Shown here piece after piece: positions 34,697 to 62,384 of a stretch of 64,000 nucleotides of DNA. The DNA is taken from the sequence record OZ035795.1; one strand, written 5' to 3'. The DNA is from Krischvirus LF73P4. The position numbers were made by a program, and so were the translations under genes. Below the pieces are notes generated by a model that worked only from the letters and a program-made list of their open reading frames with translations, searched no databases and was not told the DNA's origin. The stretch's first letter is position 1. Each line of letters opens with the position of its first letter.

Positions 34697-35029
34697 ATGA
34701 AAAATGTACTGATTGTGTGGGAACTGATTCCAGAAACTACTGAATTATACATGGTACAGGTTGATAATAAAGAATTTGAAATTCTGAAACGCGTCAACTG
34801 CAAATATATTAACATTGATGACATGACCCCAGAAATGGACTATGTAAACTATGCTCTCATGCAGCCTAGTTGGATTATGGATGAAACCAAAGCAGACGCC
34901 GAATCGCTGGGTGTACCGGAAGAAGTATTAGCGAAATGGCATCAATTCAAAGTTGAAATAAAAGAGGGCGAACCGTTTATTCCTAGCGGTATGATCGATG
35001 CGGTGATCGTAACAGGTTTTCATCTGTAA
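34697..35029 (+). CDS. hypothetical protein
   Basis: 110-aa ORF. Confidence 0.45.
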   Translation: MKNVLIVWELIPETTELYMVQVDNKEFEILKRVNCKYINIDDMTPEMDYVNYALMQPSWIMDETKADAESLGVPEEVLAKWHQFKVEIKEGEPFIPSGMIDAVIVTGFHL

Positions 35030-35041
35030 GGAGATTATACA

Positions 35042-35374
35042 ATGTTTAACTATGACAAATATGAATCATGGAAAGCGACCGAATTGAAAGAGGCAGCGCG
35101 GTTAATCACACCGCGTCTTTATCCGGTGTTGTTTAGCGCCGATAAAGTAACAAGGGAAGTAAACGAGGCGCTATCGGTTTTAGGCTATCTGATCGATAAA
35201 GTAGAGAAAACATCGGTATTCACAAATAGCGTAGAATATACCCGGTATCGAGTGTTTTTAGATTCCTTGCTCGTTGTCATTAAAGCACTAAATGATCATA
35301 ACTACACCATGAACATGACGAAAATAATCGACGAAGCAAGAATTATGACAGAGAATATTTTCGGTAAATTTTGA
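35042..35374 (+). CDS. hypothetical protein (paralog of 35489-35812)
   Basis: 110 aa; C-terminus ...DEARIMTENIFGKF matches neighbour's ...NDARKLAENVYGKF. Confidence 0.5.
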   Translation: MFNYDKYESWKATELKEAARLITPRLYPVLFSADKVTREVNEALSVLGYLIDKVEKTSVFTNSVEYTRYRVFLDSLLVVIKALNDHNYTMNMTKIIDEARIMTENIFGKF

Positions 35375-35488
35375 TTATGAAAGATGATGAATCATTGAAA
35401 ATTGCACTGGTTATGCTATTACAAGGTATAGAATTAGCAAACCACGAAAAAATGTTGACACAACAGCGTGAAATTATGAGAGGTGATT

Positions 35489-35812
35489 ATGATCGAGTTT
35501 GAAATTGACAACTTTCACGAAAAAGCAGAAGACTTAACCAAAATTTTGATTAGTCGAGGTGCATATAATACGAAAGATATTATAAAAGAAGTTAATGTAG
35601 CGATGGACGCGATCCAAAAGGAATTTAAACATATTTCAGCGATTGGAGAAAATGGTCATCTTGAAGATGTTGAGCTGGTAGCACTGCGACGCTATTACTT
35701 CTTTGTTGATTGCATCATTGATCTAGCTAAAAATTATAGTCATTACATGAAAGATATTGTAAACGATGCACGTAAGTTGGCAGAGAATGTTTACGGGAAG
35801 TTTCCAGAATGA
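35489..35812 (+). CDS. hypothetical protein (paralog of 35042-35374)
   Basis: 107 aa; GAGG upstream of ATG 35489. Confidence 0.5.
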   Translation: MIEFEIDNFHEKAEDLTKILISRGAYNTKDIIKEVNVAMDAIQKEFKHISAIGENGHLEDVELVALRRYYFFVDCIIDLAKNYSHYMKDIVNDARKLAENVYGKFPE

Positions 35813-36057
35813 AATTAGAACAAGCGATTGTATACTTTGAGATGGGCTATGATATTGCTCGTGTAGAGTGGGAAGATGGTGATTTTGTCCGATTGATTGA
35901 TCTTCCAGAAACAGCTATTGCACTGGTCAAAGTAGAAAACGGCATACAACGAAATTACGCGTTTTCTGACGAAGACAAACAAGCCGATGACTGGTACGCT
36001 ACATGTTTTCATCATACAGCGTCAAAATGCGATTCAGGCGCGTCTATGCGTCAATAA
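35809..36057 (+). CDS. hypothetical protein
   Basis: 82-aa ORF. Confidence 0.45.
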   Translation: MKLEQAIVYFEMGYDIARVEWEDGDFVRLIDLPETAIALVKVENGIQRNYAFSDEDKQADDWYATCFHHTASKCDSGASMRQ

Positions 36058-36069
36058 ATGCGTCAATAA
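36046..36069 (+). repeat. perfect 12-bp tandem duplication ATGCGTCAATAA x2
   Basis: Read directly; duplicates last three codons plus stop of ORF 35809-36057. Confidence 0.8.
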
Positions 36070-36103
36070 AAAAGAAGGGGAGGCCGAAAGGCTTCCCCTT
36101 TAA
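36068..36103. terminator. bidirectional terminator between convergent early block and holin t
   Basis: AAGGGGAGGCC-gaaa-GGCTTCCCCTT hairpin flanked by A-run (5') and T-rich (3'). Confidence 0.6.
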
Positions 36104-36104
36104 G

Positions 36105-36761
36105 TTATCTAATCCTTCCGAGGATTCTGGCAGATTGATTGCAAAGAGTATCTAAATTCTCAATGTCAATATCCGGTTTATTCTTCCATGCAATGGAGAT
36201 ACTACCAGAATAGACATTATCGAGATTGAATATAGGGCAAGAATACATAAACCCTATATCGATACTCTCTAATTTCTTTTCTCTTGATGGAATATACTGG
36301 AAATCTTTATCGGTAAAATATGATTTACCTAAAAGATGCCTACGATATTCTTCACTCGTTTTATTGATAGGGAATCCGCCTAAATTTTTTTCATCGATTG
36401 TATGCGGTAACTTTCCTTCATATGCCACCAAATCAACAAAATAGTTTAGGTTTTTCGGACGAAAACTAAAAACAGCAGAAAAATCGGCATCAGCCGACAC
36501 ATGAACTATCTGTAACTGCTCCTGTGCTGCATTATCAAAATTGCGGTCTTTCTCTACCTGGAGAACGTGAGCATAAGTCTCATAACGAGTCTCTTTATAA
36601 AGCGCAAATAACTCGTTTTTACTATAAACGACAAATGCTAATATAGACAACACGACGGCAGCAAAAACACGAAGTACGAGCAACTCCGTGCTTTTAGTTG
36701 TGAAAATAGCGCGCAGGACATTTGAGATAGCAAAGTCTTTCCCTTTTTCAGAAACTTGCAT
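36105..36761 (-). CDS. t: holin T (lysis protein t)
   Basis: 218 aa, same length and strong similarity to T4 holin as recalled (LQIVHVSADADFSAVFSFRPKNLNYFVD...). Confidence 0.9.
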   Translation of the reverse strand: MQVSEKGKDFAISNVLRAIFTTKSTELLVLRVFAAVVLSILAFVVYSKNELFALYKETRYETYAHVLQVEKDRNFDNAAQEQLQIVHVSADADFSAVFSFRPKNLNYFVDLVAYEGKLPHTIDEKNLGGFPINKTSEEYRRHLLGKSYFTDKDFQYIPSREKKLESIDIGFMYSCPIFNLDNVYSGSISIAWKNKPDIDIENLDTLCNQSARILGRIR

Positions 36762-36794
36762 ATAATGCCCTAAGATAACTATGACAGTGTACTC

Positions 36795-37034
36795 TTATTT
36801 AGGTAGTTGACTATCACTATTTTTATTTTGCTCGTTGCTATCTTCTGACTGATCTTTATTAAACTCCTTATAAAGTTCTTCCACAAAACGATCATCAATT
36901 GGCGTATTGGTATAAGCCGCAAGACGACGAGCGCAATAGAAGAAAATTTTAGTGAGCATCTTTTCACTAATTAACTTTGACAATAGTTTCATTCCGAAAT
37001 TAGACAAAGCACCAATGACGATATTATAGACCAT
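36795..37034 (-). CDS. hypothetical protein between adhesin and holin
   Basis: 79 aa; AAGGAG 8 nt upstream of ATG; hydrophobic N-terminus, acidic tail. Confidence 0.5.
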   Translation of the reverse strand: MVYNIVIGALSNFGMKLLSKLISEKMLTKIFFYCARRLAAYTNTPIDDRFVEELYKEFNKDQSEDSNEQNKNSDSQLPK

Positions 37035-37097
37035 AGCCGTTTCTCCTTAGTAGTTCCCTTCCGTGGGAGTTTTCCTTAATTCTTTTTATAATTGCGT

Positions 37098-37880
37098 CTA
37101 AACAGCCGGTCCGTAAATAGCTCCGCGATTTTGCCACGTTGGAGAAGACCCTATAACAGCATATCCAGAATCGCCGCCATTATATTCAGATCCTTGACCA
37201 CGAATATTACATCTACCTCCTGCGGCGCCTACCTCACCACCGCTTCCACCATTATAGATACCGTTCACGGACCCCGAACCGGGCGCATAAAGAGTACCAG
37301 CAGTTGCGCCTGATTGCATATCAATAGATCCGCCCGGCGCACCAAACGGACGCCCACCGCCACCGCCAAAGGTTAATCTCATTTGTGAAAAAGGAGAATA
37401 ATACCCGCCACCGCCACCGCCACCGCCACCTGCAATAGCTCCACCATTATTAATTCTTAGTCTCCCACCAATATCATTTTGAATACAATGCCCCCCGGCT
37501 GATCCAGGACCATTGCTACCGCCATTCCCGCCACGACCATACATCGTTACGCCATGTATATTCAACTGAACATATTCATTCGGTGTATCTCCGTACATAA
37601 AGAATAAAGGAACATCTTTAGAATATGATACTAAATCTCCAGTGATATTAAACACTATAGGTGTACTACCTGCTTCAAAGCATCTATCACGGAACCACTG
37701 ACCGTTGAAGTTATGGTCTGCACCAAGTGTATGAATAATTTCTCGCGAGCGACCTGCAAATTGACTCATCCAGCAAGGAACACCCAATCTTAATTGACCA
37801 GCCGCTTGACTCATCCATCGTTGTCCTGTTTCATTTGCGGCTGAACTTCCAATCCAACCAGGAACACCAACTACTGCCAT
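37098..37880 (-). CDS. 38: long tail fibre tip adhesin gp38 (T2-type, glycine-rich motifs)
   Basis: 260 aa; conserved N-terminal domain then poly-Gly runs separated by variable segments. Confidence 0.9.
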
Positions 37881-37893
37881 AATTTATACTCCA

Positions 37894-37912
37894 AAGGGGG
37901 CAACGCCCCCTT
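37894..37912 (-). other. tight stem-loop AAGGGGGC-aac-GCCCCCTT between gene 37 and gene 38
   Basis: Perfect 8-bp inverted repeat with 3-nt loop. Confidence 0.4.
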
Positions 37913-37916
37913 GTTG

Positions 37917-40697
37917 TTAGAATTTAAAATATTTACTAATTTTGCGAGCAATTTTAGTAAAGAAAGGAGTTTTCAATTCTTTAATTTCTTCACTCATTTC
38001 CTGAATAGCCTTAATTAAAAGAGCATTCACTGCCGAGTTAGAAATTGTCAGAACATCAGATCCATCAACTTCAACTTTAGATACAGCTTCCGGCAATTCT
38101 TTTTCAAGATCCTGAGCAATAATACCAGCTTCACGTTTAATCACACTACGATCTTTAATAGACTTAACTTTATCGTAAGTATAAACTTTCAGACGGCATA
38201 CTTTTTCAAGTGCTCCGTTTTCTAACTCTTCTTTATTAATCTTAAGACGGGAGTCAGAACGAATATACACATCGCTAAAGCTACCATTTCCTGGTGTATA
38301 AAAGAACCCATCATGATGGAATTCAAACACAGCTTGTGGGTGTCCAGCATCAGGAGAAGCCTCCGTGGATCCGACACGAATGATTGCTTGCCCCCACTGT
38401 GATGGAATACGACGCATACCAAAGTCAACAGCGGTGCTATATCCTTGATTGGTTATAACGCTTCTTGCTTTAAGAATAGGATAATAACTATCTTGACCAA
38501 CATAACCATGATCAACGAATAATGGAGCTTCTACTCGCCATTGGTTGCCCCAATCACCTGGTTGTCTGGCAACCCAACTTGCACCATTGATATACATACG
38601 ATCGCGGTTAACGTTAACCATTAAGGTATTTTGCGGGTTTAAAGATATCTCGCCAGAATTTGTAATATAAATTGCAGAATTACTAGCATAACTAAAAAAC
38701 CCTAATCCGTTATCAGCGCCTCCTTTCCCTATATACCAATTATTATTACCATCACAACTACCCAACAAATAAACCGAATCTCCAGATGACGGAGCATTCA
38801 AAACTATTGCGTCCGAACCACGATTAACAGTTATTTTATCGGAAGATTCTATTTGACCAAAGAATTTAGTTTTAATTGCACCAGTCGCTAAAGTACGTTC
38901 AGTGGAAAAATGAGCGCCTTTGCTATCTTCTAACTGAATAATGTTATCACGAGCGTTATTGCTATCACCCCAATGGTTAAATTTAAAATAATCTCGTGAT
39001 CCTAAACGTCCGGCGTCAAAAGTCATCAAGCCTTTCATGTTAATATCACCACCAAAAAATGCGGTGAGAGAATCACGTTTTAATTTTAAAACGTTAGCAC
39101 CACTAGTACCACCCAAAGTAACATCACCAGTTCTTAATTCATAACGGAAAGGTCTATTTGTATTAAAGTTTCCATCTTGATCATTTTCGTCGGTGGAAAG
39201 AATATAAAGACTCTCTCCATCATTACGTAAAAATGCACCAAATTTTCCGCCATACATACGGAATGCATTCAACGAGCGGAATTTAACTTCTGTTTTAAAT
39301 GTGGTAGTGTTATTAAGGTTAACAGTAGAGTTAAAGTTAACTGCGCCATTAAAATCTTGTTTAGCAGTCCAAGTATGTGATCCGTCTTCAAGAACAACAC
39401 GGCGAACTGTACAAGTTCTATTTCCCGGATTACCAGCAACACGAACGACAAAATAACGGTAGTTTGTCTGGGATACAGTACCACGCCAAACCTGAACAGT
39501 ACGCCCTGTGCCAGTGTGTTCGCTAGGACCGACAGAAAACATAACCAAGTTTCCGTCAATCGCACCCCAATCCATATTTGCTGGCATGTTCTTTATTTTG
39601 TTCAAAGGAACACTAAACATACTACCAGGGACAAAATCAAAGGTTTGCCAGTCTAGCTCCGCTAATTGAGATTTAACACCACCCATACCCAGAGTGATCG
39701 GCATAGAATAGGACGTATATACTTCGTACCAATTTCCCCAGATGTTATTTGTCATCGCACGTTCAAACACGCGAGATCGCGTAGTTGCACCCGTTCCTGC
39801 GGTAGTGAAACGTTGGAAAATAGCGGCACCGGAAGCACGCTGTTTAACCTCAAGCAATCCGGTCATCTCAACCGGAACACCTTCTGCAACTGGACGGTTA
39901 ATAACGGCATCAGTCCCTAAAATGTTATACAAGCCAGGAGAACGAAAATTATTAAGATCCCCGTCATAGAATGTGTTTGGAGTAACCATACCTACTTGTT
40001 GCCACGGTCCCCAATTCGGAGCTTCTGGATCCCATGCACCAGCAAGACAACGAACATATACAACACCCATTCGGGTAGTATAACGTTGCGTGCGAGAATA
40101 GTTACCACCTTCATAAATTTCTAAAAGACCTTGCGCGAGACCACCTTCTTCTGGGTAATTTCGAGAAAATGATGCAATGGAACTTAAACTATTTCGCCAT
40201 AACCCAAAATGAGAAGCATCACCTAAAGTATTCAAGTCTAGTGTAGTTGATAGTGGACGTGTGCCAGTTTGAATATTGCGCCACGGACCCCATGGACCAT
40301 CTACGCCATTCCATTTAGCAGACAAAGAACGGATATAAACGTTACCAGACCGAACAGTATAACGCTGAGTGCCAGCAAATTGACCAGCCACAAATACTTC
40401 TAATACACCTACAGCATTCTCTTCTGGGAATTTATTTGCTGGCTGCGCATTTGTTGAAGTTGATTTAGACCAAACGCCAGTAAATTTACCAGTAGGTCCA
40501 TAATTATCTAAATTTGCATCAGATGGCAACTCACCGCGAAAGTGTCCCAAAGTAATTACATTATTGCTGTCATCTTTTGTATATAGTTCTCGATCCGCTA
40601 GGTTAATAGCAAGTTCACCCGGAGTTAGAATATTCGCATCCGGCTTGCGACCTGCCGTACTTGTTCTTTTAAATTGGATTCTCTGTAAATCTGCCAT
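37917..40697 (-). CDS. 37: long tail fibre distal subunit gp37, with C-terminal intramolecular-chaperone-like segment
   Basis: 926 aa; N-terminus QRIQFKRTSTAG...GELAINL like T4 gp37; SDSRLK motif about 113 aa from C-terminus. Confidence 0.9.
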   Translation of the reverse strand: MADLQRIQFKRTSTAGRKPDANILTPGELAINLADRELYTKDDSNNVITLGHFRGELPSDANLDNYGPTGKFTGVWSKSTSTNAQPANKFPEENAVGVLEVFVAGQFAGTQRYTVRSGNVYIRSLSAKWNGVDGPWGPWRNIQTGTRPLSTTLDLNTLGDASHFGLWRNSLSSIASFSRNYPEEGGLAQGLLEIYEGGNYSRTQRYTTRMGVVYVRCLAGAWDPEAPNWGPWQQVGMVTPNTFYDGDLNNFRSPGLYNILGTDAVINRPVAEGVPVEMTGLLEVKQRASGAAIFQRFTTAGTGATTRSRVFERAMTNNIWGNWYEVYTSYSMPITLGMGGVKSQLAELDWQTFDFVPGSMFSVPLNKIKNMPANMDWGAIDGNLVMFSVGPSEHTGTGRTVQVWRGTVSQTNYRYFVVRVAGNPGNRTCTVRRVVLEDGSHTWTAKQDFNGAVNFNSTVNLNNTTTFKTEVKFRSLNAFRMYGGKFGAFLRNDGESLYILSTDENDQDGNFNTNRPFRYELRTGDVTLGGTSGANVLKLKRDSLTAFFGGDINMKGLMTFDAGRLGSRDYFKFNHWGDSNNARDNIIQLEDSKGAHFSTERTLATGAIKTKFFGQIESSDKITVNRGSDAIVLNAPSSGDSVYLLGSCDGNNNWYIGKGGADNGLGFFSYASNSAIYITNSGEISLNPQNTLMVNVNRDRMYINGASWVARQPGDWGNQWRVEAPLFVDHGYVGQDSYYPILKARSVITNQGYSTAVDFGMRRIPSQWGQAIIRVGSTEASPDAGHPQAVFEFHHDGFFYTPGNGSFSDVYIRSDSRLKINKEELENGALEKVCRLKVYTYDKVKSIKDRSVIKREAGIIAQDLEKELPEAVSKVEVDGSDVLTISNSAVNALLIKAIQEMSEEIKELKTPFFTKIARKISKYFKF

Positions 40698-40741
40698 TTT
40701 ATAAAATCCTTAACGGTTGTTAGAATAATATTATTTAGAAA

Positions 40742-40760
40742 AGCGGGGATTATCCCCGCT
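40742..40760 (-). terminator. stem-loop AGCGGGGA-tta-TCCCCGCT, partial terminator/attenuator between gp36-like gene and gene 37
   Basis: 8-bp perfect inverted repeat; short U-run follows on - strand. Confidence 0.4.
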
Positions 40761-40764
40761 AGAA

Positions 40765-42255
40765 TTAGAAAGTACCAAAATCAATTACCGCATTAAGCGG
40801 AACAGCGCCAACATCATCAGGAGTTGGTTTGTGTCCTTCGTGGTATAATTCAAATGTATCGGTGTCCTGAGTATTGTTGCGTGATTTAACGAAAATAATT
40901 TTAGAATCATGTGTGATGCCTAGTTTCTCGTGCGCTTTAATATCACTAACACGATGAATCATTGCTGTGCCATCTAAGCTATTAAGTCCAGCGTAGCAAT
41001 TATCACCATTATAGTTAGCTTTTGCGGTACGAACGCCGTTTGCAGCGGGAACTGTCAAAGCACCTCTCATGGTATCGCCAGTCACATTAACATAGCGAGC
41101 ATCAGCCAATTTACGGTGATCTACATAGTTCCATGCGGTCCATGATTCATTAGAACAAGAACGCCAGCACATCGGATGATCAATAGATTCAGGATAGTAT
41201 ACCTGAACAATTCGACGAGTACCGACCGCATCTTCTGGGCGATATACCATCAAAACGCCGTTATAATAGCTATCAGACGGTTTATTAGTACCTGATCCAG
41301 CATTTTCCACACGATAGATACCGCGATTAATAAGAGTGTTCCAATCAACGTTTCCAATGATTGTTGGATTTGCTACCATTGATTTTTTCTCAAAGTAGCT
41401 CAAACGAACCAATTCATTAGGACCAGCAGGATCGTTTGTCGCCAACATTCTAGGCGCTTGCAAGTTACCTTCCATAATATCACCAGCACGTTTAACCTGT
41501 GCATCATTGGTGACATTACCTAGTCCAACATCGGCTTTAGTCGGTTTATTGTTGGTGTGGTAGAATCTACCTGCCTTGCCATTAACAGAAATTGTCGGCT
41601 CGTTTTTGCTACTGAATGCCAAAGTATCAAGACTATTTCCAAAATAAATGGCATTAGAATCGAAAGCAATGAAACCACGATCCCGCGCAAGTATTTTCGA
41701 ATTAACATCAAGTTTAAATGTAGCCGTGTTTAAATTATACGTTCCCGTGAGAGTATCACCGCGACGAGACACCAAATCCAAATCATTGTTTGTCGGCTTA
41801 TTAACAGGACTATAGACGCGTTGACCAGTGTCTTTAATGGTTGTCCCTTCGATGGTCCCTTTAGTTTTAAAATCACCTGTGGTAGTGTCAATATAAGCCA
41901 TGATAACATCATCACGAGCATTAACAAAACCAATAGATTTCCACGAATGCAAACCCCAACTTACACCATCAAAGTTAGCCGCATCGCTCTTTCCTTTAAA
42001 GATCCCGTTCTTTTTGGTTTCTCCACCGGATGCGCTACCTACGCTTAAACCTTCCTCAAAATGGACCAGTTTCTGAAATGTACCACCCTCAGATGCACTA
42101 ACAGCATCAAAATCGGCAGCCGAAGGTTTATCAAAAGCGGTATAGATTTTATGACCTTTATAGAAAAGCTGATCACCCGCTGGCTGGATCGTCAAGTTTC
42201 CTTGCGTCCAAATGGGAGATCCGCCTACAGTAGATCCATGTTTCAAATCTGCCAT
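40765..42255 (-). CDS. 36: long tail fibre hinge/connector protein, gp36-like (enlarged)
   Basis: 496 aa; N-terminus MADLKHGSTVGGSPIWTQGN...PAGD resembles T4 gp36; directly upstream of gene 37. Confidence 0.6.
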   Translation of the reverse strand: MADLKHGSTVGGSPIWTQGNLTIQPAGDQLFYKGHKIYTAFDKPSAADFDAVSASEGGTFQKLVHFEEGLSVGSASGGETKKNGIFKGKSDAANFDGVSWGLHSWKSIGFVNARDDVIMAYIDTTTGDFKTKGTIEGTTIKDTGQRVYSPVNKPTNNDLDLVSRRGDTLTGTYNLNTATFKLDVNSKILARDRGFIAFDSNAIYFGNSLDTLAFSSKNEPTISVNGKAGRFYHTNNKPTKADVGLGNVTNDAQVKRAGDIMEGNLQAPRMLATNDPAGPNELVRLSYFEKKSMVANPTIIGNVDWNTLINRGIYRVENAGSGTNKPSDSYYNGVLMVYRPEDAVGTRRIVQVYYPESIDHPMCWRSCSNESWTAWNYVDHRKLADARYVNVTGDTMRGALTVPAANGVRTAKANYNGDNCYAGLNSLDGTAMIHRVSDIKAHEKLGITHDSKIIFVKSRNNTQDTDTFELYHEGHKPTPDDVGAVPLNAVIDFGTF

Positions 42256-42288
42256 AAAGTAACCTCAAAAATTAGTTATAGTTCCGAG

Positions 42289-42296
42289 TATTTATA
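42289..42296 (-). promoter_or_regulatory. T4-type late promoter box TATAAATA
   Basis: Exact TATAAATA on - strand, 33 nt upstream of gp36-like ATG. Confidence 0.55.
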
Positions 42297-42465
42297 GAAT
42301 GTTAACAAAATATCGCTTCGCGACGTGCCGTAGGCACTGACTACTTTTTAACCGAAACAAATTTTCTATTATTCTAAAGATCTTTCTTCGTTTTGGTTAT
42401 GTTTTAACCAATAACTATATTTTTATACAGTAATAAATAAAACGGGTACTATACGAGGACTTCTT

Positions 42466-42720
42466 ATGACAGAAGACATTTTGTTAAAACTCTATGATCG
42501 TCTGGATAACGAATTAGCAACATTGCGGGGTGAAGTTCTCTATTTGTCTAAATGCAATACAGATCTGCTTAAGCAGATTGCAGAAAGGGATGATCAAATA
42601 AAATCCCTTTCAGGTGCATTACGTGATCGCGACAAGGCATTAGAGATTTTACAGCGTGTTACCAATAAGGAAGAATTAAAAGACTTCTTACATGGTTATG
42701 CTCATGCCATCGATCTATAA
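42466..42720 (+). CDS. hypothetical coiled-coil protein
   Basis: 84 aa; GAGGA 6 nt upstream of ATG. Confidence 0.45.
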   Translation: MTEDILLKLYDRLDNELATLRGEVLYLSKCNTDLLKQIAERDDQIKSLSGALRDRDKALEILQRVTNKEELKDFLHGYAHAIDL

Positions 42721-42746
42721 TAAAAAAGCCCGTCAATGACGGGCTT
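42721..42746 (-). terminator. rho-independent terminator ending the gene 4 - gene 2 transcript
   Basis: AAGCCCGTC-aat-GACGGGCTT hairpin; on - strand followed by TTTTTTA. Confidence 0.6.
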
Positions 42747-42750
42747 AATG

Positions 42751-43572
42751 TTATGCATCCTTCCAAACTTTCCTTGCGTCGTATTTCTTGCCTTTTGACA
42801 TAAACTGATATGTAGGCATATAGATAATATTGCTCCAGTCTTTCGGGCTAATCTCAACAAGTTTTGTTTTAATGTGTCCCGGTAGATATGCTTTGATCAT
42901 GTGATCACTTCCACGCATACCTTTTACATCGCTCCATTTGATTTTTAAGCGTGTTTTATTGCTCAAGGTAGGAGTAGATGCATATTGCTTTAAAAGTGCC
43001 TCTAAAAACTGCTGACGGGCTTTAGGCGTTACATAGTGTAAGTTAAGACCCAGCATTACAGTATTACCCGCCTTTGTCTTAGAATCACCCAGACAAATGA
43101 TCAGCGGGAAAACATCCCAATATGGTAAAGTGTCTTTATACTTCGCATCATACATAAAGGTATAGATTCGCCCTACTTGCGGTTTTACAATCTGGTGTCC
43201 CTTTATTCCCGCTTTTATTGTTTTAGTAAACCACTCCTGTGATTTTTCTTTAGGACGACTCTTTGATACAGCACGCATAGACGCACGAAAATCATTAATC
43301 ATCATCATTGCGCGTTGCTGCTTATTGAGACCCTTTGCACCTTTCCCTTTTAGTTTTTCAACTTCTATTGCTGTTTTAATTTCGCTGGCATAACGAGACA
43401 TACTTTTAGTGAAAGTCGCATAGGCTATTCCCTTAGAATCTGCAAATGCTTTAGCTGTCATGCCTTTGGCTTTTGCTTTCGCAAATTCTACACCCAATTC
43501 GACCCACTGTTTAGACTTTCTTTTTTGGGGAGACGGCTTTTCGTCTTCTGTGATTATTTCAAATACGCTCAT
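42751..43572 (-). CDS. 2: DNA end protector protein gp2
   Basis: 273 aa, basic; size and position next to gene 4 as in T4. Confidence 0.65.
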   Translation of the reverse strand: MSVFEIITEDEKPSPQKRKSKQWVELGVEFAKAKAKGMTAKAFADSKGIAYATFTKSMSRYASEIKTAIEVEKLKGKGAKGLNKQQRAMMMINDFRASMRAVSKSRPKEKSQEWFTKTIKAGIKGHQIVKPQVGRIYTFMYDAKYKDTLPYWDVFPLIICLGDSKTKAGNTVMLGLNLHYVTPKARQQFLEALLKQYASTPTLSNKTRLKIKWSDVKGMRGSDHMIKAYLPGHIKTKLVEISPKDWSNIIYMPTYQFMSKGKKYDARKVWKDA

Positions 43573-43583
43573 AATATTATCCT

Positions 43584-44057
43584 CTATTTGTTAAGCCCTT
43601 TAAAGCCAAACACTTTCTTTAATGCATGTTCGGTGATGATCTTAAACTCCATGTTATGCTTTTGGCATAATTTCACGGCAGCTAACCATTTTTCAGTATT
43701 TTTTGTGTATGTCCATACTTCATGCATATATCGTTGCTTTGTCTTCGCGGTCATTCTTTTTGGCTTTTCCGGTGGCCTTGTCTCTTTAGCTGGTTTAACT
43801 TCCCATAAATGCTCCTTGCCATCATCAAACTTAACGTAAAAATCCATAAAGTATCTGTGTCTTTTTCCGTCTGTTGATGACTCATAAGGAATTACTACGG
43901 TCTCAGATCCCCATTTTGCAACTCTAGGATTGCGGTCTAGCCACTGCATGATCCATCTTTCCCAGCTTGAACGGTATGTGATCTTACGTATATCCCCTTT
44001 ATACTTTTCCTTATTCTCAGGAACATACTTGCCCTTATAAGTGTTAGATCCTCCCAT
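43584..44057 (-). CDS. 4: head completion protein gp4
   Basis: 157 aa; divergent from gene 53 as in T4. Confidence 0.65.
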   Translation of the reverse strand: MGGSNTYKGKYVPENKEKYKGDIRKITYRSSWERWIMQWLDRNPRVAKWGSETVVIPYESSTDGKRHRYFMDFYVKFDDGKEHLWEVKPAKETRPPEKPKRMTAKTKQRYMHEVWTYTKNTEKWLAAVKLCQKHNMEFKIITEHALKKVFGFKGLNK

Positions 44058-44072: not shown

Positions 44073-44080
44073 TATAAATA
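44073..44080 (+). promoter_or_regulatory. T4-type late promoter box TATAAATA for gene 53 operon
   Basis: Exact TATAAATA, 32 nt upstream of ATG 44113. Confidence 0.6.
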
Positions 44081-44112: not shown

Positions 44113-44667
44113 ATGCTCTTTTCTTTCTTCCCTGCCATTGAATACAATGGCAAGATGATTACTGACATTGTGCGCAATTACCGCGCATATTTCAACGCAA
44201 TAATTTCTGATTATAACATACAAACATATTACATTCAAGGTAGTCCACGACCGGAACAAGTTGCATATGAAGTATACGGAAACCAGCAACTTTATTGGAT
44301 CTTGCTGATGCTTAATGACGTATACGATCCGTTTCATGACTGGATCACTGATCAAGAGACAGCATATGAATCAGCCGAACAGCGATATGCAAATGTAGGA
44401 GGAAATCAAGTATTATACCACGTTGATATTGACGGAAACAAGTATTGGAATCTTACCGAATATCCGAAAGGATCAAGCAATTGGTATGATAAAGGGGATA
44501 TTCATCACCGTTATTTGCAGTTTCAGGGTGCATTATCGGCAGTAGACACACTGGAAGATGCGATCCTCCGTAATGAGGAACGACGCAAGATCAAGATCAT
44601 AGATCCTACACAAATTAAACAATTTATTAACGCATTCATTCGAGAAATGGAAAAGGCTGATGTGTAA
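44113..44667 (+). CDS. 53: baseplate wedge protein gp53
   Basis: 184 aa; first gene of late operon, upstream of gp5. Confidence 0.7.
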   Translation: MLFSFFPAIEYNGKMITDIVRNYRAYFNAIISDYNIQTYYIQGSPRPEQVAYEVYGNQQLYWILLMLNDVYDPFHDWITDQETAYESAEQRYANVGGNQVLYHVDIDGNKYWNLTEYPKGSSNWYDKGDIHHRYLQFQGALSAVDTLEDAILRNEERRKIKIIDPTQIKQFINAFIREMEKADV

Positions 44668-47053: not shown

Positions 47054-47346
47054 TGGCTGGATTATCCTACGATAAAGCTAAAACTACAGGGCACGGAAAC
47101 TACCCACCTACGGTAATTAATGCAACTCAATCTAAGGTATTTGTTGAGGGTATCCCTGTATTAGTCGAAGGAGACCCAATTACACCACATACAAAAACAA
47201 CAAAGCCTTATGATACACACGGGGGAACTACGGTCGCCAGTACCCCGAAAGTATTTGTTACCGGAAAGAAAGCAATTCAAATGGCAGATCGTATTAGCTG
47301 TGGCGATACCGTCGCTATGGCATCACCGAAGGTATTCATAAAATGA
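47053..47346 (+). CDS. 5.4: PAAR-type spike tip protein gp5.4
   Basis: 97 aa, same size and position as T4 gp5.4. Confidence 0.7.
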
Positions 47347-49247
47347 CAAAGCAAAAGATTACACAAATTCCTGATATTTTTAATGCTGCTACGTTTGATG
47401 AAATTAAAAGCGCATTAACAGACTGGATGAGAAACCAGGAAGAATTTAAAGATTTTGATTTTAATGGTGCTGGCATTAACGTATTGATGGACTTGCTCGC
47501 ATATAACACTCTGTATATTCAGCAATTCGCTAACGCCGCGCTATATGAATCTTTTATCAGAACGGCAATTAAGCGTAGTTCAGTTGTTCAAGCCGCGCAA
47601 GATTTAGGATATTTGCCAGCAAGTAAAACTAGTGCATCGACCACAATTATGTTGCACGTATCACATCCGCGAAATCCGGCAAGTATTCGAATCCCACGAG
47701 GAACTAAATTTATTGCAAGTGTGGATCGCCAGACTTCTTACCCATTTGTTACTACAGAGGACGTCGTAAGCGTTTTAGGTTCAAATGGTTTATATACGCC
47801 TATGCTTAAAGTCGCACAAGGTCGTATTGTTCGTACAGAAATGTTATTTGATCCGAAGAAACAAATTCTGATCCGTGATCCTGATATTGACCGCGCTCAG
47901 GTTAAGTTGTGGGTAGATGGTGCTGAATGGAAAGACTGGACGCGAGAAAGTATTGTTAATGCAACTGGCGCTAGTAATATTTTCTATATGCGTGAAACCG
48001 TAGACGGACATACTGAAATTTTCTTTGGTGAGGGTGAATCAACTTTATCTGCCGCTGGCGGTGCACTGGAAGCAAATTATATTGGTGGACTTAAGCCGTC
48101 AACTGGTGCTAATATTGTTATCGAATATATCAGCACTAAAGGCGCGGAAGCAAACGGTTCAGTTAATTTCACATACGCGGATACATTGGCATCAATTTCT
48201 ATTGTTAAAATTATTGAGAATCCGACAAATGATCGTGATTATGTCGGTGCAGATGGTGGTGGTGATCCTGAATCAATCGAACGTATCCGTGAACTTGCTC
48301 CGGTAATGCGTGAATCTCAGCGTCGTTGTGTGACTGCTTCCGACTATGAGGCTTTTGTGTCTAGCCGTTTTGGTAGTATTGTTCAGGCGGTACAATGTTT
48401 CACCGACCGAGAAAAACCGGGTTATGCTTTTGTTGCTGTTAAGCCTAAATCTGGCTTGCGCTTGACAACCGTTCAAAAAGAAGATATGCGGGATTATCTG
48501 GCAAAATATAACCTTGCCCCTATCACGCCGAGCATCATTGACCCTAACTATCTGTATATTAAACAGAATATTAAAGTTTCCTATTCAATCAACGACTTGT
48601 CAGAATCAGAGCAGTGGTTGCGCGGTGCGGTTATTGATCAGATTGATGCATATTATACCGACGAAGTGGAAATTTTTAACCAGACATTTAGTAAGTCTAA
48701 AATGCTTGCTCGTATTGACAAAGCTGATGTATCTGTGATAGGTTCTAGTGCAGAAATCGAGATGGTGCGAGAGATCGACAACTTCTATAAAGCACCGATG
48801 GCGGGAATCAAGTTTTTAAACCAGTATAAGAGCGGAATCAAGTCTAGTTCATTCAACTTCGAAAAGGACGACAAGCAATATCCGATCCATTATGTAAGTA
48901 CAGAAATGAACAAAGAATCCGGTTTAGCTAAATTGCTGGTTGGACCTTTCCCTGTTGATTCTACAATCGCTTTACCGCACTATTCCGGCACTGATTTTGA
49001 TAAAGAGATTATCGACGGTGCGGACCTATACTTTGAGGTTGGAGAGGTTCAGCATTATGAAGACCTTATTTCATGGGATCTGGGTAAACTGAATATCAAT
49101 AGCGATCGCTTTACTGGTTCATATATTGAGTTGACAGCTAAACCGATTGCTGATAACATTTTTACTAAAGACGGTTCTTTGATCGTGTTTGAAAACGATC
49201 TCCGTCCTCAGTACACAACTATTAGTCTGGAGGCAATTGCTCAATGA
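47343..49247 (+). CDS. 6: baseplate wedge protein gp6
   Basis: 634 aa; size and order match T4. Confidence 0.8.
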
Positions 49248-52200
49248 TTAAAGCGCCTAGTGTAACTAGCTTGACAATAGAAAAATTGTCTGCTAATCAG
49301 GCGTATATCACATGGGATGACGTAGGCGAAAACTTCTTTTATTTTGTGGAGTTAGCCGAAACCAGAACACGAGACGGGGAGATCATCCCCGTCGATGAGT
49401 TAAGCTGGGTAAACCTGGGATATACTGCCGACCAAAACTGGTTTGAGGATAAAAACCTTTTTCCAGAATATTATTACAAGTTTCGTGTAGCAGTAGCCGC
49501 AGAAGGATTTGAACAAAGTAAATGGGTTGAAACAGAAGAGTTTCAGACATTTAAAACAAACGCATATAATTTTTCTATGATGCGAGAGTTCAACCTTGCA
49601 AACGAGTTTATAAAGGAAAAATTTACATACGATAATCGAGAGTATGTCAAGTTTAATACTGACCTGATTCAAGCATCATTAATGAAGGAAGATTTTGTCT
49701 TTAGTCCTGAATATGCAAACATGACAAATATCTCAAACTACATTGTAGTGGATGAGAACTTTCATGAAATACAGGATCACATAGAAAAAGTTTGTACTGA
49801 TATAAACCGCACTATGTTAGCGGAAATGAACGGTGTTTTGTACCTTTTCGAACGGTTCCAGCCGATCGTGAAAGTGTCAAATGATAAAGGCCAATCATGG
49901 AAAGCATACAAGGCTTTTAATGACCGTGTAGGGAATCCGGTTTCCCGTACATGCGTTTATCAGTCTAAAACCACTACTTACGTTTTAGGATATGACCGAA
50001 TCTTTTACGGACGACAAGCGAGCGATACTCGATGGAGCGCGGACGATGTTCGATTTAGTGATGATACGATCACTTTTGCAAAGGTCGGTGACGAAAACGA
50101 TTTAGGCTTTGACGTTGAGGTCTTTGGTGTATTTTCCAGATTAACAGGTGATACCACAAAATACGCCGAAGCTATGGCGTGTAGTGATGACTATTTGTGG
50201 GTTGGTGCTAAAGATGTTATTCGCAGGATTCGTCTTAAGAATACTCCTGTTGATACCGTACAGGGTTCGCCTACGTTTGGAGAAAAAATATTCGATCCTG
50301 ATGTTATCCGAGTAACAGGAAATGATAAAGCTGTCATTCAGAAAATGGATGTGATCGACGGTAAATTGCTTGTATTTGTTACGGGTGAAGTTAAACAGCG
50401 TTATCAAGATCCAACTAAACCAGAAAACGTTGTTCCGTCAGATGATGCGGGTGTATACTTAATAGGGAGTGATGGTCTGTCTTTTCAGAGAGTATTTGGC
50501 AACACTCCGCAGGAAAGGGAATATATTCAGCATGGGTTCAGTAATATGTCAACCAATGGTGATGAGGTGTTCATAAGCCATTATAATCATCACTTCGAAA
50601 GCATTTTACCTGATCCAGAAACTGCCGAGAAATATGAATTGGGCGAAGCTGTAAAATATTCTCAGGAGCCAACTTATCTAACTGATAAGAAAATACATCA
50701 AACTACTTTCAGAGCAAGTTATGATGATTTGCGTATTTGGGAGTTAGGACCGCAAGCGTATTATAACGAGGCTGATTATACATGGATGCGTCGAAACGGT
50801 GTCCGTGTGTGGATCACAAATGATAATCGCCCGTTGGTTGTTTATCCAGAAGTTGTCTATACGCAGGAAGTTGATACTTCCGGCATTCTTGATAAAAACA
50901 GAATTAACCGTGAAGTTTATGATAAAGGGACCGTGACCTGTTATCTTAACAATGTTAAATTTGAAGGATTCAAACAATATGCATCCGGTGTAATGTTCCA
51001 TAAAAACACGGGAGAGATCATAGGATTCTATCAATTTAACTATCGCGTTCGTGATCAGGTTGGTGTATATTGGAAACCTACAAATGTAGCATTTGTTGCT
51101 GAATTGCAAAATCAGGTTCGAGAGGTTCCCTGGGTTCCGGTTCACTACGATCGAGAACAAGACCCAGATTTGCGACCTTTACTGAATAAGATGACACCGG
51201 ATAGCTTTTTACTTGAGAACGAAAATTTCAGAAAATTCTCTGAATATTATCTGCAATTCTTAAGTGATGGTTCTGGAACATATTATAATAAACTAAAAAA
51301 TCTGATTAAAAACAAATATCCACGCGAGCAAGATGCATATGAGTATCTTTGGTCAGAGATGAACAAACGAAACATCTATGCAGATAAAAACAAGCGAGAT
51401 GCGGTCGTAAGATTCTTTGAATCCCGCAAATCAGATTTTTATTCCACTAAGGGCGTGGAGGCTTCTTATAAGTTCTTGTTTAAGTTACTTTATAATGAAG
51501 ATGTGGAAATTGAGGTTGAATCACAAGCCGGACTAGAGTATGATATTGTTGTTAGTTCAACGAACATTGACGAGGATATCGTAGGTCGCACGATTTATAC
51601 CCCGACCGGACGGGCTAACGTGACTTATCTTGAAAGGGAATATGAAGGTGGACGTCTACGCTGGCGAGTAACCATTCATAACCTGATCGGGCGGTTCGAA
51701 GAAGGTCAAGTGATCAAATCAGAGAAAACAGCGTTTGAAGGGATGATCCTTGTTGGTGTACGTGGTAAAGAGTTGCTGAGTAGTTCAATCGACTATATCA
51801 ACCGATCACGAAGCCAATACACCATGAAGATTAAAAGTGCATTGCCAGTTTCGCGCTATGCAAATGATGTAATGCGATTCGTTCATCCTGTCGGCTTTGG
51901 GTTTATCGGTGTTACCCTGCTTACGATGTTCATTAACAGCGGGTTGAGCATGAAGCACACCGAGACTATAATTCAATCTCTGAAAAATTATAAGTTTGAC
52001 AGCGGATTGCCTAGCGTGTATCCTGATCGGGTGGCAGACCTTGATGTTGATGGAAATATTAAGATTGACCCACTAACAGGGAAACCATTATACTTAACGT
52101 CACCGACAATTGGCGAAGAGTTCCCTGTTCCTCCTGAATATGATCAGGAGAACAGCGAATTGTTCCACGGACTTAAAGCAAGCGAACGAAGATTTGCAAT

Positions 52201-52330
52201 GAGTCCACTGTTTGACCAGTCGGCGGTAACATTCTCTATGTTCCGTGAACTTGTAGATAAAAGGTTGAAGGATAATATAGGGAATCCACGCGATCCGAAG
52301 AATCCGACACAGAGGAAAATTAATGGCTAA
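49244..52330 (+). CDS. 7: baseplate wedge initiator gp7
   Basis: 1028 aa; size and order match T4. Confidence 0.8.
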   Translation: MIKAPSVTSLTIEKLSANQAYITWDDVGENFFYFVELAETRTRDGEIIPVDELSWVNLGYTADQNWFEDKNLFPEYYYKFRVAVAAEGFEQSKWVETEEFQTFKTNAYNFSMMREFNLANEFIKEKFTYDNREYVKFNTDLIQASLMKEDFVFSPEYANMTNISNYIVVDENFHEIQDHIEKVCTDINRTMLAEMNGVLYLFERFQPIVKVSNDKGQSWKAYKAFNDRVGNPVSRTCVYQSKTTTYVLGYDRIFYGRQASDTRWSADDVRFSDDTITFAKVGDENDLGFDVEVFGVFSRLTGDTTKYAEAMACSDDYLWVGAKDVIRRIRLKNTPVDTVQGSPTFGEKIFDPDVIRVTGNDKAVIQKMDVIDGKLLVFVTGEVKQRYQDPTKPENVVPSDDAGVYLIGSDGLSFQRVFGNTPQEREYIQHGFSNMSTNGDEVFISHYNHHFESILPDPETAEKYELGEAVKYSQEPTYLTDKKIHQTTFRASYDDLRIWELGPQAYYNEADYTWMRRNGVRVWITNDNRPLVVYPEVVYTQEVDTSGILDKNRINREVYDKGTVTCYLNNVKFEGFKQYASGVMFHKNTGEIIGFYQFNYRVRDQVGVYWKPTNVAFVAELQNQVREVPWVPVHYDREQDPDLRPLLNKMTPDSFLLENENFRKFSEYYLQFLSDGSGTYYNKLKNLIKNKYPREQDAYEYLWSEMNKRNIYADKNKRDAVVRFFESRKSDFYSTKGVEASYKFLFKLLYNEDVEIEVESQAGLEYDIVVSSTNIDEDIVGRTIYTPTGRANVTYLEREYEGGRLRWRVTIHNLIGRFEEGQVIKSEKTAFEGMILVGVRGKELLSSSIDYINRSRSQYTMKIKSALPVSRYANDVMRFVHPVGFGFIGVTLLTMFINSGLSMKHTETIIQSLKNYKFDSGLPSVYPDRVADLDVDGNIKIDPLTGKPLYLTSPTIGEEFPVPPEYDQENSELFHGLKASERRFAMSPLFDQSAVTFSMFRELVDKRLKDNIGNPRDPKNPTQRKING

Positions 52331-53318
52331 TGAAAATAGTGTGATCTATCGCTCAATCATTACTAGCAAATTCAGAACAGAAAAACTTCTGAACTTCTAT
52401 AATTCTGTAGGCGATGGAGCAAATCAAATTACAATTTATGGAACGTTTGGACGTTCGGAGCCGTGGTCAGAAAACGAAAAAGAGGTGGGCTTTGCCCCAC
52501 CTTATCCGACCGATTCAACGGCTGGTGTTGTTGACATGTGGACCCATATGATGGGGGCGGTTAAGATTAACAAATCACTTCTTGATGCGGTTATCCCTCG
52601 TAAAGATTGGGGTGATACCGGACAGGATAACCCGCGCACGTTCTTTATCAATGACATTGTTGTCGTAAACTCAGCACCATATAACCGTACAGATGTTGGT
52701 AGCGGCTGGATGGTTTACCGTGTAACTGATGTTCCTGATCGCGGTTACTGCTCGATTTCAAGCATTGACGCTAAAGTAGAGTGTTTGAAGTTGGGCGGAA
52801 AGTGGACACCTACCCATGAATCAATTGCGCCACCTGTAGGAAAGGGCGATTCTATTGATATGGGTGATGGGTATCGTTGGGAATATCTGTACACAATTCC
52901 GCCTGATGCGGCGATCAACCGTTGCACCAATGAACATATTGTTGTACCGTTCCCCGATGAACTGCGACAAGATCCGGCGCGTTGGGGCTATGACAATGTG
53001 ATCACCTGGTATAATGACTATAATCTGCTTTATCGGCTGAAAGTAGTAACTTTGCGTTTTCAGGCTTATATGGACTCTGCGCAATTCCCAACTACCGCGT
53101 TAGTGGGTAATACTGGTTTCCGTCAGTTAAGCATTATCCTTAACCCATTGGAAAAGAAAGCACGCCCTAGCGATCCAGACGTTAAAGCGGTTAAATATAA
53201 GTACCGACCGCAAGACTTAGAGCCACACTCAGGAGAAATGATCTACATGGAAAACCGACAACCTATCGTTCGGTCATTAGATCAAACAGAACTTGTTTCT
53301 GTATTGTTTGAGTTCTAA
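52323..53318 (+). CDS. 8: baseplate wedge protein gp8
   Basis: 331 aa; size and order match T4. Confidence 0.8.
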   Translation: MANENSVIYRSIITSKFRTEKLLNFYNSVGDGANQITIYGTFGRSEPWSENEKEVGFAPPYPTDSTAGVVDMWTHMMGAVKINKSLLDAVIPRKDWGDTGQDNPRTFFINDIVVVNSAPYNRTDVGSGWMVYRVTDVPDRGYCSISSIDAKVECLKLGGKWTPTHESIAPPVGKGDSIDMGDGYRWEYLYTIPPDAAINRCTNEHIVVPFPDELRQDPARWGYDNVITWYNDYNLLYRLKVVTLRFQAYMDSAQFPTTALVGNTGFRQLSIILNPLEKKARPSDPDVKAVKYKYRPQDLEPHSGEMIYMENRQPIVRSLDQTELVSVLFEF

Positions 53319-53331
53319 GTGTATGATTTTA

Positions 53332-53366
53332 AAAGCCAATTCGAGAGAGTTGGCTTTTTCCATTTT
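53332..53366 (+). terminator. rho-independent terminator after gene 8
   Basis: AAAGCCAA / TTGGCTTT hairpin followed by TTTTT. Confidence 0.55.
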
Positions 53367-53371
53367 TGGTG

Positions 53372-53399
53372 TTGACAATATTATTTGGTAAGGTATAAT
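53372..53399 (+). promoter_or_regulatory. near-consensus sigma70-type promoter TTGACA-16-TATAAT
   Basis: -35 at 53372-53377, -10 at 53394-53399, 30 nt upstream of ATG 53429. Confidence 0.55.
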
Positions 53400-53428
53400 G
53401 CTCACATCTAAACAACGGAGGATAAATT

Positions 53429-53686
53429 ATGGCACGTCGTAAATTTACAGATAATTGTGAAGCAATTCAGGTATCCCCTTGCGGTTGGTATGTGATCGCG
53501 AACGGTGAAAAGATCGGAGAGATCATCGATCATACTCATTCATCACTAGCCGATTACACCGATGAACTATGGGAGGGTATCAACTTCATGAATGACACTA
53601 AACGATTCAAGACTATCGACGAAGCTATCTATTTTGTGTATAATCCAACTTTCGGTATGTGGGGAACTAGAAAATGGCACGCGTAA
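53429..53686 (+). CDS. hypothetical protein (cassette gene 1)
   Basis: 85 aa; GGAGGA 6 nt upstream. Confidence 0.5.
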   Translation: MARRKFTDNCEAIQVSPCGWYVIANGEKIGEIIDHTHSSLADYTDELWEGINFMNDTKRFKTIDEAIYFVYNPTFGMWGTRKWHA

Positions 53687-54003
53687 ATATTAAACTGCAT
53701 TATACAATGGGTAAACCAAAACATCCAATGCATAAAGTGTTTTGGGGCTTGCATCTTCAAGAAAAATGGCATGATAACTATTGGTTTTGTGACCATGATA
53801 AGAAGTGGCATTCTCAAGATGAAGTTAATGCGATGATGGAACATGGTATAAAATTTAATTACTCTAATTATGACCATAGCATTACTTGTATTCGAAAATT
53901 GAAACGGTTTATTCGAAAGAATCCGCAATTTAAAAACTTTGTGTTCTTTATGTCTCATGTTTATTTGGGGCATAGCGTTACCGTAACAGCAAAGGTTAAA
54001 TAA
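53674..54003 (+). CDS. hypothetical His/Trp-rich protein (cassette gene 2)
   Basis: 109 aa; start overlaps upstream ORF. Confidence 0.5.
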   Translation: MARVNIKLHYTMGKPKHPMHKVFWGLHLQEKWHDNYWFCDHDKKWHSQDEVNAMMEHGIKFNYSNYDHSITCIRKLKRFIRKNPQFKNFVFFMSHVYLGHSVTVTAKVK

Positions 54004-54842
54004 TGGCACGACTTTCTAAACAAGAGCAAAAATTACACGATCGGGCGATGGAGCTAATCAATTCAGATCGCCCATTGACCTATGAAGAAAAAGAATTTTG
54101 CTATAACAACTATCATGGCGATGGGCTAGGTGGTTCCGGTGCATTCTTTACCCCAGAAGGGCTTGCCTGGGATTTTACCATTGATGCACACTGCACCGGA
54201 AAAGTATTGGACCTTTGTGCTGGGATCGGTCGTTTATCTTTTTGTATGTTGCATCGCTGTAAGCCAGAAAAGATCGTATGCGTCGAACTCAATCCAGAAT
54301 TTGCGAGGATTGGCAAGCGACTATTACCGGAGGCAGAATGGATCACCAGCGATGTATTCGAATTTGAGTCAAACGAGAAATTCGATGTTGTAATTAGCAA
54401 TCCACCTTTCGGGAAAATCAATACAACCGACACAAAGGATGTATTTGAGTACACTGGCGGCGAATTTGAATTTAAGGTTATGACATTAGGCCAGAAGTTT
54501 GCCGATGTAGGTTATTTTATTGTTCCTACTGGTTCCGCTGGTTTTGCCTATTCCGGTAGACCTTATTATGATGGATCAGTGAAGTCTAATAAATATCTAA
54601 AATGGAGCAAACAAACTGGTTTGGTGACTTATGCCGGATGTGGGATCGATACATCAATCTATCGCGATGAATGGCACAGTACCAACGTTTTAACAGAAGT
54701 GGTTGAGGTTCGGTATTACGAGAAAGAAGCCGTAGAAGCGCCTAAATCGCGTCCTAACGAACAAATAGAAGAAAGTAAGGAGATTACCTTACCGGAACAA
54801 GAAACAGCGTCTGGGACGCTCTCAGACTTGTTTGACATTTAA
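54003..54842 (+). CDS. gamma-class N6-adenine-type DNA methyltransferase (cassette gene 3)
   Basis: 279 aa; motif X GAFFTPEGLA, motif I VLDLCAGIGRL, motif IV VISNPPFG. Confidence 0.75.
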   Translation: MARLSKQEQKLHDRAMELINSDRPLTYEEKEFCYNNYHGDGLGGSGAFFTPEGLAWDFTIDAHCTGKVLDLCAGIGRLSFCMLHRCKPEKIVCVELNPEFARIGKRLLPEAEWITSDVFEFESNEKFDVVISNPPFGKINTTDTKDVFEYTGGEFEFKVMTLGQKFADVGYFIVPTGSAGFAYSGRPYYDGSVKSNKYLKWSKQTGLVTYAGCGIDTSIYRDEWHSTNVLTEVVEVRYYEKEAVEAPKSRPNEQIEESKEITLPEQETASGTLSDLFDI

Positions 54843-54846
54843 TTAT

Positions 54847-54872
54847 AAGCCGTCCTCCTGGGCGGCTTTTTT
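54847..54872 (+). terminator. rho-independent terminator after methyltransferase
   Basis: AAGCCG...CGGCTT hairpin followed by TTTTTT. Confidence 0.6.
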
Positions 54873-54882
54873 GTATGTATTT

Positions 54883-54890
54883 TATAAATA
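54883..54890 (+). promoter_or_regulatory. T4-type late promoter box TATAAATA for gene 9
   Basis: Exact TATAAATA, 27 nt upstream of ATG 54918. Confidence 0.6.
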
Positions 54891-54917
54891 ATACATCATA
54901 ACATGAGGAATTAAACA

Positions 54918-57571: not shown

Positions 57572-57572
57572 T

Positions 57573-58217: not shown

Positions 58218-58227
58218 GGTGTAAATT

Positions 58228-61400: not shown

Positions 61401-61407
61401 GAAATTA

Positions 61408-61428
61408 AAGGGGCGTTAAGCCCCTTTT
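61408..61428 (+). terminator. rho-independent terminator after wac
   Basis: AAGGGGC-gttaa-GCCCCTT hairpin followed by TTTT. Confidence 0.5.
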
Positions 61429-61446
61429 CCGTTTATAGGTGATATT

Positions 61447-62379: not shown

Positions 62380-62384
62380 TTTAT

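Follow-up and report, generated by a model that had tools for sequence, protein, structure and literature searches.

The stretch of DNA analysed here (the window) is 64,000 nucleotides of Krischvirus LF73P4 (sequence record OZ035795.1), in which tail-fibre gene 36 is joined through a repeat of ~100 nt (42313–42411) to ORF84, a conserved open reading frame (ORF) neighbouring gene 2. The window very probably spans one end of an inversion, either of the ~86-kb segment running from ORF84 to gene 35 or, equally, of the complementary ~79 kb, with the breakpoint lying in an inverted repeat. A sequence-only reading of this DNA had proposed either a distal fibre module transplanted beside genes 2 and 4 or an assembly or recombination junction. 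The latter is borne out and can be located, as the switch between blocks falls inside the repeat, which forms an inverted pair at both parental sites in relatives; transplantation has the wrong geometry, as the fibre genes keep their normal right-hand neighbours for ~36 kb. We lean towards an origin of the exchange in assembly or finishing, a genuine inversion of the phage genome being possible but doubtful.

Gene order and junction geometry

The window is assigned to Krischvirus (RB49-like Straboviridae) by megablast, with 97–99% nucleotide identity to relatives. The nearest GenBank genome is KMB43 (OR525698), which matches almost the whole window in four blocks of 97.4–98.6% identity in local blastn, while the right-hand block shares 98–99% identity with 58 Krischvirus records. 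Positions 1–42411 of the window are the reverse complement of KMB43 27185→1 followed by 164476→149218, and run from the early genes near gene 43, through rIIA/rIIB and topoisomerase, to t-38-37-36. Positions 42302–63999 correspond to KMB43 63319→85019 in the forward direction, and comprise ORF84 and genes 2, 4, 53, 5, 6, 7 and onward. Homing-endonuclease indels aside, this is the single point in the window that departs from the KMB43 order. Among such indels, an HNH_3/AP2 ORF of the window (23404–23967, plus strand) is absent in KMB43, and the KMB43 HNH gene at 11059–11622 is absent in the window (around 15548–15557).

In RB49 (NC_005066), Phi1 (NC_009821) and KMB43 the order is T4-like, with 57B-57A-1-3, ORF84, 2-4 and 53-5 in one region and 34-35-36-37-38-t in another, so that the T4 order given in the sequence-only reading holds for Krischvirus. 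The two parental sites are ~86 kb apart in KMB43. The window shares with the canonical Krischvirus/T4 arrangement a counterpart of every gene, promoter motif and terminator in 36.1–44.1 kb, but it does not follow the canonical order: gene 36, which there comes after 34-35, adjoins ORF84 and gene 2, which there come after 57A-1-3, and the two sites are fused through the repeat. The reported absence of genes 34, 35, 3 and 1 from the window also held in blastn against KMB43, in which the stretches missing from the window are 27186–63318 (holding 57A, 1 and 3) and 85020–149217 (holding 34 and 35).

In a three-way alignment the window follows copy A of the repeat (the copy beside gene 36), both in its flank and in its diagnostic bases, through the repeat and then continues with the right flank of copy B (the copy beside ORF84), without any indel. 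No bases are gained or lost at the junction, and the breakpoint lies within the resulting hybrid repeat. Typing of the flanks placed copy B between gene 3 (or an HNH insert) and ORF84 in 31/31 loci and copy A between gene 36 and gene 35 in 8/8 loci, and the linkage of gene 36 through the repeat to ORF84 was found in the window only, against none of the 39 repeat copies in the loci compared. Across the left 42 kb of the window the fibre genes are collinear with their usual right-hand neighbours (t, followed over ~36 kb by early genes that reach gene 43 and continue past it); the feature that has changed is the orientation of the ~86-kb block, while the position of the module has not. The source contig of 163,088 bp is of normal genome length, which fits a balanced rearrangement.

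From this geometry we infer that homologous exchange through the repeat made the junction. Exchange between copies A and B within the repeat would flip the orientation of the ~86-kb block, and the reciprocal junction, joining gene 35 through the repeat to gene 3, would be expected outside the window, in the rest of the 163-kb source contig. Relative to the repeat, the promoter of gene 36 and the promoter region of gene 3 are gene-proximal, and on its far side are the gene-35 terminator (annotated in Makalu_002) and the upstream region of ORF84; each gene therefore keeps its own promoter and terminator after the exchange, and an inverted isomer should be viable.

The inverted repeat across Krischvirus

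The two reference blocks overlap on positions 42302–42411 of the window (110 nt), and in KMB43 this sequence of ~110 nt is present twice on opposite strands. Copy A (149218–149327) has the gene-35 terminator on one side and the gene-36 late promoter on the other, and copy B (63319–63428) is flanked by the gene-3 late promoter region and ORF84. In an alignment of eight copy-A and 31 copy-B loci, taken from GenBank, ENA, IMG/VR and NCBI assemblies, a 99-nt core (TCGCTTYGCG...TTAACCAA) is conserved at both sites genus-wide.

In the seven relatives for which both copies are available, the longest exact stretch common to A and B is 33–49 nt. At core columns 7, 19, 32, 54 and 88 the same alternative alleles occur in copies A and B across genomes: RB49 copy B carries the ‘A-type’ base at column 32, KMB43 copy A has a ‘B-type’ right end, and the ‘A-type’ C of column 7 appears in three of the copy-B sequences. 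The best explanation of this allele mosaic is that the inverted copies undergo gene conversion or exchange with each other. Directly beside copy B there are variable insertions of homing-endonuclease genes, which could be a source of double-strand breaks. More generally, HNH or CapR-like ORFs occur variably in relatives at three places: in the interval from gene 3 to the repeat, in that from ORF84 to gene 2, and behind gene 4.

The repeat belongs to a small family. The two main inverted copies (cores at KMB43 63329–63426 and 149218–149316) are ~97% identical, and two more, diverged copies are located downstream of gene 24 (KMB43 98127–98184 and 98208–98333); at three of the family's sites the element separates an upstream terminator from the gene that follows leftward. 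A diverged copy retains a small hairpin, though of different sequence (GTGCC-GTA-GGCAC versus CTCC-TAC-GGAG), and in one copy-B sequence the hairpin loop is flipped from GTA to TAC.

As regards possible functions of the repeat, no sigma-70-like site was found in 42302–42411 on either strand, small hairpins being the only features there. Folding of the repeat is of modest stability (z of −1.8 for the plus and −2.8 for the minus strand), and the copies are too alike to show covariation. A search of Rfam with 41.5–43.5 kb (E ≤ 1) returned nothing on the repeat and only sub-threshold matches on the gene-2 terminator. Matches to a MotA box and a −10 element, as would be expected for a MotA-type middle promoter or a replication origin, were poor by eye. 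Exact 34-mers of the repeat core gave zero matches in JGI metagenomes and zero in GTDB genomes, and in IMG/VR they occurred in two contigs only, the longer of which is canonical.

Occurrence of the gene order

The order found in the window is unique to this genome among ~60–90 independent Krischvirus assemblies. No match spanning the junction was obtained in any of the 58 GenBank Krischvirus records, even at blastn sensitivity; together with the 39 repeat copies typed above, this excludes the possibility, named in the sequence-only reading, that the order is the norm among close relatives. Exact-protein look-ups with ORF84, gp2 and gp5 (NCBI, ENA) gave 30 places, among which a few assemblies recur; the 29 that run past ORF84 are all canonical, and the remaining one is a Logan contig of another run that ends at the repeat, 95 nt upstream of ORF84. 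A contig from IMG/VR also has canonical flanks. A literature search for an inversion in Krischvirus returned nothing relevant.

Assembled contigs of run ERR12949693

On both sides of the junction the window is matched at 100% identity by Logan contigs of run ERR12949693, which end at the repeat; the two sides thus come from one sample. Contig_5 corresponds to window 34765–42361, and the retrieved part of contig_1 (52,078 bp) corresponds to window 49631–64000, the end of contig_1 being placed at window 42382 by coordinate arithmetic. These ends equal 42331 + 30 and 42412 − 30, as would be expected of a k = 31 graph if the two copies have their last difference at 42331, where relatives vary between T and G, and part again at 42412. 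The two copies in this phage are thus inferred to be identical over 42332–42411, an exact repeat of 80 nt. In the k = 31 graph of this run the contigs stop at both edges of the 80-nt core, with no linkage across the repeat. Other assemblies are also broken here: an IMG/VR contig of 164,706 bp starts inside the repeat, and Logan contigs of two runs end there.

Assembly artefact or genuine inversion

On balance, the exchange probably arose in assembly or finishing, by a modest preponderance of the evidence, and the phage itself would then have the canonical order. The exact repeat at the junction is of a length that can collapse in the assembly graph, and it is also where other assemblies break, which is the setting in which a mis-join can occur. 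An inverted repeat pair in a circular assembly graph permits both traversals; once a break has occurred, joining contigs by their overlapping repeat ends is blind to orientation. A k-mer size of 77 is a common largest value for 150-nt reads, and the 80 nt of this genome just exceed it while the 33–49 nt of relatives fall below, which would explain why only this genome is affected. Moreover, inverted isolates are absent even though alleles pass between the copies in nature, so the inverted isomer is probably selected against and rare among isolates. Several observations weigh against an artefact. Modern paired-end assemblers usually thread an 80-nt repeat with reads of at least 150 nt, so that a mis-join presupposes short reads, overlap-based assembly or joining by hand, none of which is known for this record. 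The transcription units are all intact after inversion, so that viability is expected, and the alleles that A and B have in common at five sites show in vivo recombination of the copies, for which 80 nt of perfect homology is a better T4-type substrate than the 33–49 nt of relatives.

Some of these points equally favour a genuine inversion isomer, in which recombination between the inverted ~100-nt repeats flipped the ORF84–gene 35 segment in the isolate or in a sizeable fraction of the stock; we regard this as a serious possibility that falls short of an even chance. It is consistent with the hybrid repeat free of indels, with the alleles common to A and B at the five columns, which indicate ongoing ectopic exchange or gene conversion, with the unusually long perfect homology and with the finding of both flanks at 100% identity in a single run. 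T4 recombination reportedly needs roughly 50 bp or more (Singer et al. 1982). Homing endonucleases beside copy B may have made the breaks, and repeat-mediated recombination is documented for the promoter-early stem-loop (PeSL) elements of RB49/Phi1 (PMC2839356). On the other hand, the order stands alone among the Krischvirus assemblies, and recombining copies should make both orientations common if inversion were neutral; nor was the reciprocal junction seen, which would lie outside the window.

All remaining options together (strain chimera, transposition, deletion, or something unconsidered) are improbable. A chimeric contig, in which two co-assembled Krischvirus strains were joined at the common repeat, might be suggested by the best reference, which differs by side (KMB43 at 100% just left of the junction, FL15 and GoldenSnicker at 98.7% on the right), but mosaic similarity is normal in Krischvirus, both sides are present at 100% in the contigs of one run, the 163,088 bp correspond to a single genome, and joining two canonical strains would still need an orientation flip; such a chimera is very unlikely. 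Transposition or horizontal transplantation of 36-37-38-t beside genes 2 and 4 is still less probable. The C-terminal part of gp37 and gp38 are ~85% identical to T6-type fibres of another genus, so the cassette is mobile between phages, but the canonical right-hand neighbours are retained, the breakpoint is one homologous switch within a repeat that both parental sites naturally possess, and duplicated target sites, a recombinase and foreign flanks are all absent; transposition of the module was rejected on the collinearity over ~36 kb and the position of the breakpoint in the native repeat. A deletion joining gene 36 to ORF84 in a defective genome would account for the genes absent from the window, but has almost no probability and was rejected, as the two blocks are opposite in orientation relative to the reference, which is impossible by deletion, and the source contig is of full genome size.

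Genes and signals at 36.1–44.7 kb

The order of genes and signals described in the sequence-only reading (4, 2, terminator, plus-strand ORF84, late promoter, 36, 37, 38, a 79-aa ORF and t) was confirmed by an ORF map and by a Pfam scan of ten ORFs at 35.8–44.7 kb, from which the domain calls below are taken. The holin gene t (36105–36761, minus strand) encodes a protein with the Phage_holin_T domain (PF11031, E 8e-61) and is annotated as holin in KMB43. Between it and gene 38 lies the 79-aa ORF79 (36795–37034, minus strand), which is conserved in Krischvirus and annotated in KMB43; it gave no match in the local Pfam scan, while PF26925 is precomputed on the 100%-identical Logan contig. Gene 38 (37098–37880, minus strand) encodes the tail-fibre adhesin (PF05268, E 4e-71; PF21721), and gene 37 (37917–40697, minus strand) encodes the distal long-tail-fibre subunit of 926 aa, containing PF21446 (Gp34_trimer) and PF13884 (Peptidase_S74). 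The gp36-like fibre protein of 496 aa (40765–42255, minus strand) has a weak match to PF03903 (22.4 bits, cut-off 26), but is identical to KMB43 gp36 and is annotated as gene 36 in RB49 and Phi1.

The late promoter claimed ahead of the gp36-like gene is present as the motif TATAAATA (42289–42296, minus strand), which lies outside the repeat on the gene-36 side and is kept in all copy-A left flanks. This motif occurs three times only in the window, each time closely upstream of a late gene. It is followed by the 99-nt repeat core with the breakpoint (42313–42411), a hybrid joining the left end of copy A to the right flank of copy B, and by the copy-B right flank itself (42412–42465, plus strand), which is the ORF84 upstream region and is identical in all 31 copy-B loci. 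This region contains a late-promoter-like sequence (AATAAATA, 42432–42439) matching at 7/8 positions, which may act as a promoter. ORF84 (42466–42720, plus strand) encodes a conserved hypothetical protein (RB49p130) without any Pfam match.

ORF84 and gene 2 are convergent, and between them lies a GC-rich hairpin terminator (42726–42746) with a stem of 9 bp, six of them GC; read on the minus strand (42746–42726) the hairpin is followed by a T-run, in agreement with the strong terminator claimed after gene 2. RB49 and KMB43 match the window continuously from ~42302 rightward, terminator included, and as gene 2 naturally has both the terminator and ORF84 beside it in RB49, Phi1 and KMB43, these two stand outside the anomaly. 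Gene 2 (42751–43572, minus strand) encodes the DNA end protector, which is assigned from the RB49 annotation and found as the exact protein in 370 blocks of a gene-position collection, with PF26869 precomputed. Gene 4 (43584–44057, minus strand) encodes the head completion protein (PF08722, E 4e-21; RB49 annotation). A further late promoter TATAAATA (44073–44080, plus strand) and gp53 (44113–44667, plus strand) open the baseplate gene block. GC skew falls below zero only at 36–44 kb, in line with the minus-strand block. The fibre, holin and head-completion genes are ordinary, and neither a new function nor a host-range mechanism is implied.

The fibre module itself is variable. The region encoding the C-terminal part of gp37 and gp38 (window 37128–40535) shares ~85% DNA identity with genes 37/38 of T6-type Tequatrovirus, which points to exchange of the adhesin cassette between genera. 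RB49 and Phi1 cover only ~40% of the fibre module, the adhesin cassette being variable within Krischvirus. An 82-aa ORF (35809–36057, plus strand), convergent with the holin gene, has a Tad2-like (Thoeris anti-defence 2) Pfam domain at 27.9 bits (cut-off 25). Further right, a 279-aa S-adenosylmethionine (SAM)-dependent methyltransferase-like ORF (MTS, Methyltransf_25, Eco57I; 54003–54842, plus strand) is located between gp8 and gp9 in the baseplate block and is conserved in KMB43. The exact gp6 product (47343–49247, plus strand) has no record in the gene-position collection, though Logan contig_1 should cover it, which probably reflects a gap in the index.

Comparison with known systems and implications

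In RB49 and Phi1, PeSL cassettes drive modular shuffling via homologous recombination (Arbiol et al. 2010, PMC2839356; Comeau et al. 2014, PMC4122927). Like these, the repeat described here is a short non-coding repeat of the same phage group and a substrate for homologous recombination and rearrangement. However, PeSLs consist of a sigma-70 early promoter and a stem-loop, flank ORFans in hyperplastic regions and form direct repeats that lead to excisions and mini-circles, whereas the Krischvirus repeat is without a sigma-70-like site, and is thus not a PeSL, lies among core late genes and forms an inverted pair, which leads to inversion.

The G segment of Mu (Gin) and the C segment of P1 (Cin) are 3–4 kb long, have an adjacent serine invertase and ~30-bp sites, and swap fibre C-termini. 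The likeness to these systems, an inversion bounded by inverted repeats beside tail-fibre genes, is superficial: the segment here measures ~86 kb, a recombinase gene was not found, alternative fibre exons are lacking, the coding sequences are untouched and a host-range switch is not expected. Switching driven by an invertase was rejected, since none of the ten ORFs scanned (35.8–44.7 kb) has a recombinase domain, the KMB43 annotation shows no such gene nearby, and the inverted stretch extends over ~86 kb. The L and S segments of herpesviruses and the inverted repeats of plastids are a closer parallel, in that exchange between inverted repeats gives two genome isomers and the same ambiguity in assembly. 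Those repeats are of kilobase length and the isomers about equimolar, and reads must span the repeat to distinguish them; the repeat here is 0.1 kb, and all other assemblies show a single orientation. Cyanophage T4-likes carry a large inversion relative to non-cyanophage T4-likes (Sullivan et al. 2010, PMC3037559), a precedent showing that T4-type genomes tolerate a large inversion with their modules intact. That inversion is ancient and fixed in its clade, while the one described here occurs in a single genome of an otherwise uniform genus.

If the junction is an artefact, the public record has about half of the genome in the wrong orientation, and the ~100-nt inverted repeat deserves flagging as an assembly trap in Krischvirus, given the demonstrated breaks there. 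Only tentatively can the junction be taken as physically real, that is, as an inversion of ~86 kb (about half of the genome) via genus-wide ~100-nt inverted repeats, giving an isomer that is viable but normally selected against. In that case LF73P4 would be the first Krischvirus with a large inversion, and the repeat would be a built-in flip-flop substrate in T4-type genomes, offering a natural setting in which to ask what keeps gene order and orientation so constant. Since all members of the genus have the inversion substrate, and it recombines in them, the rigid synteny of T4-type genomes would then be kept by selection, not by lack of opportunity.

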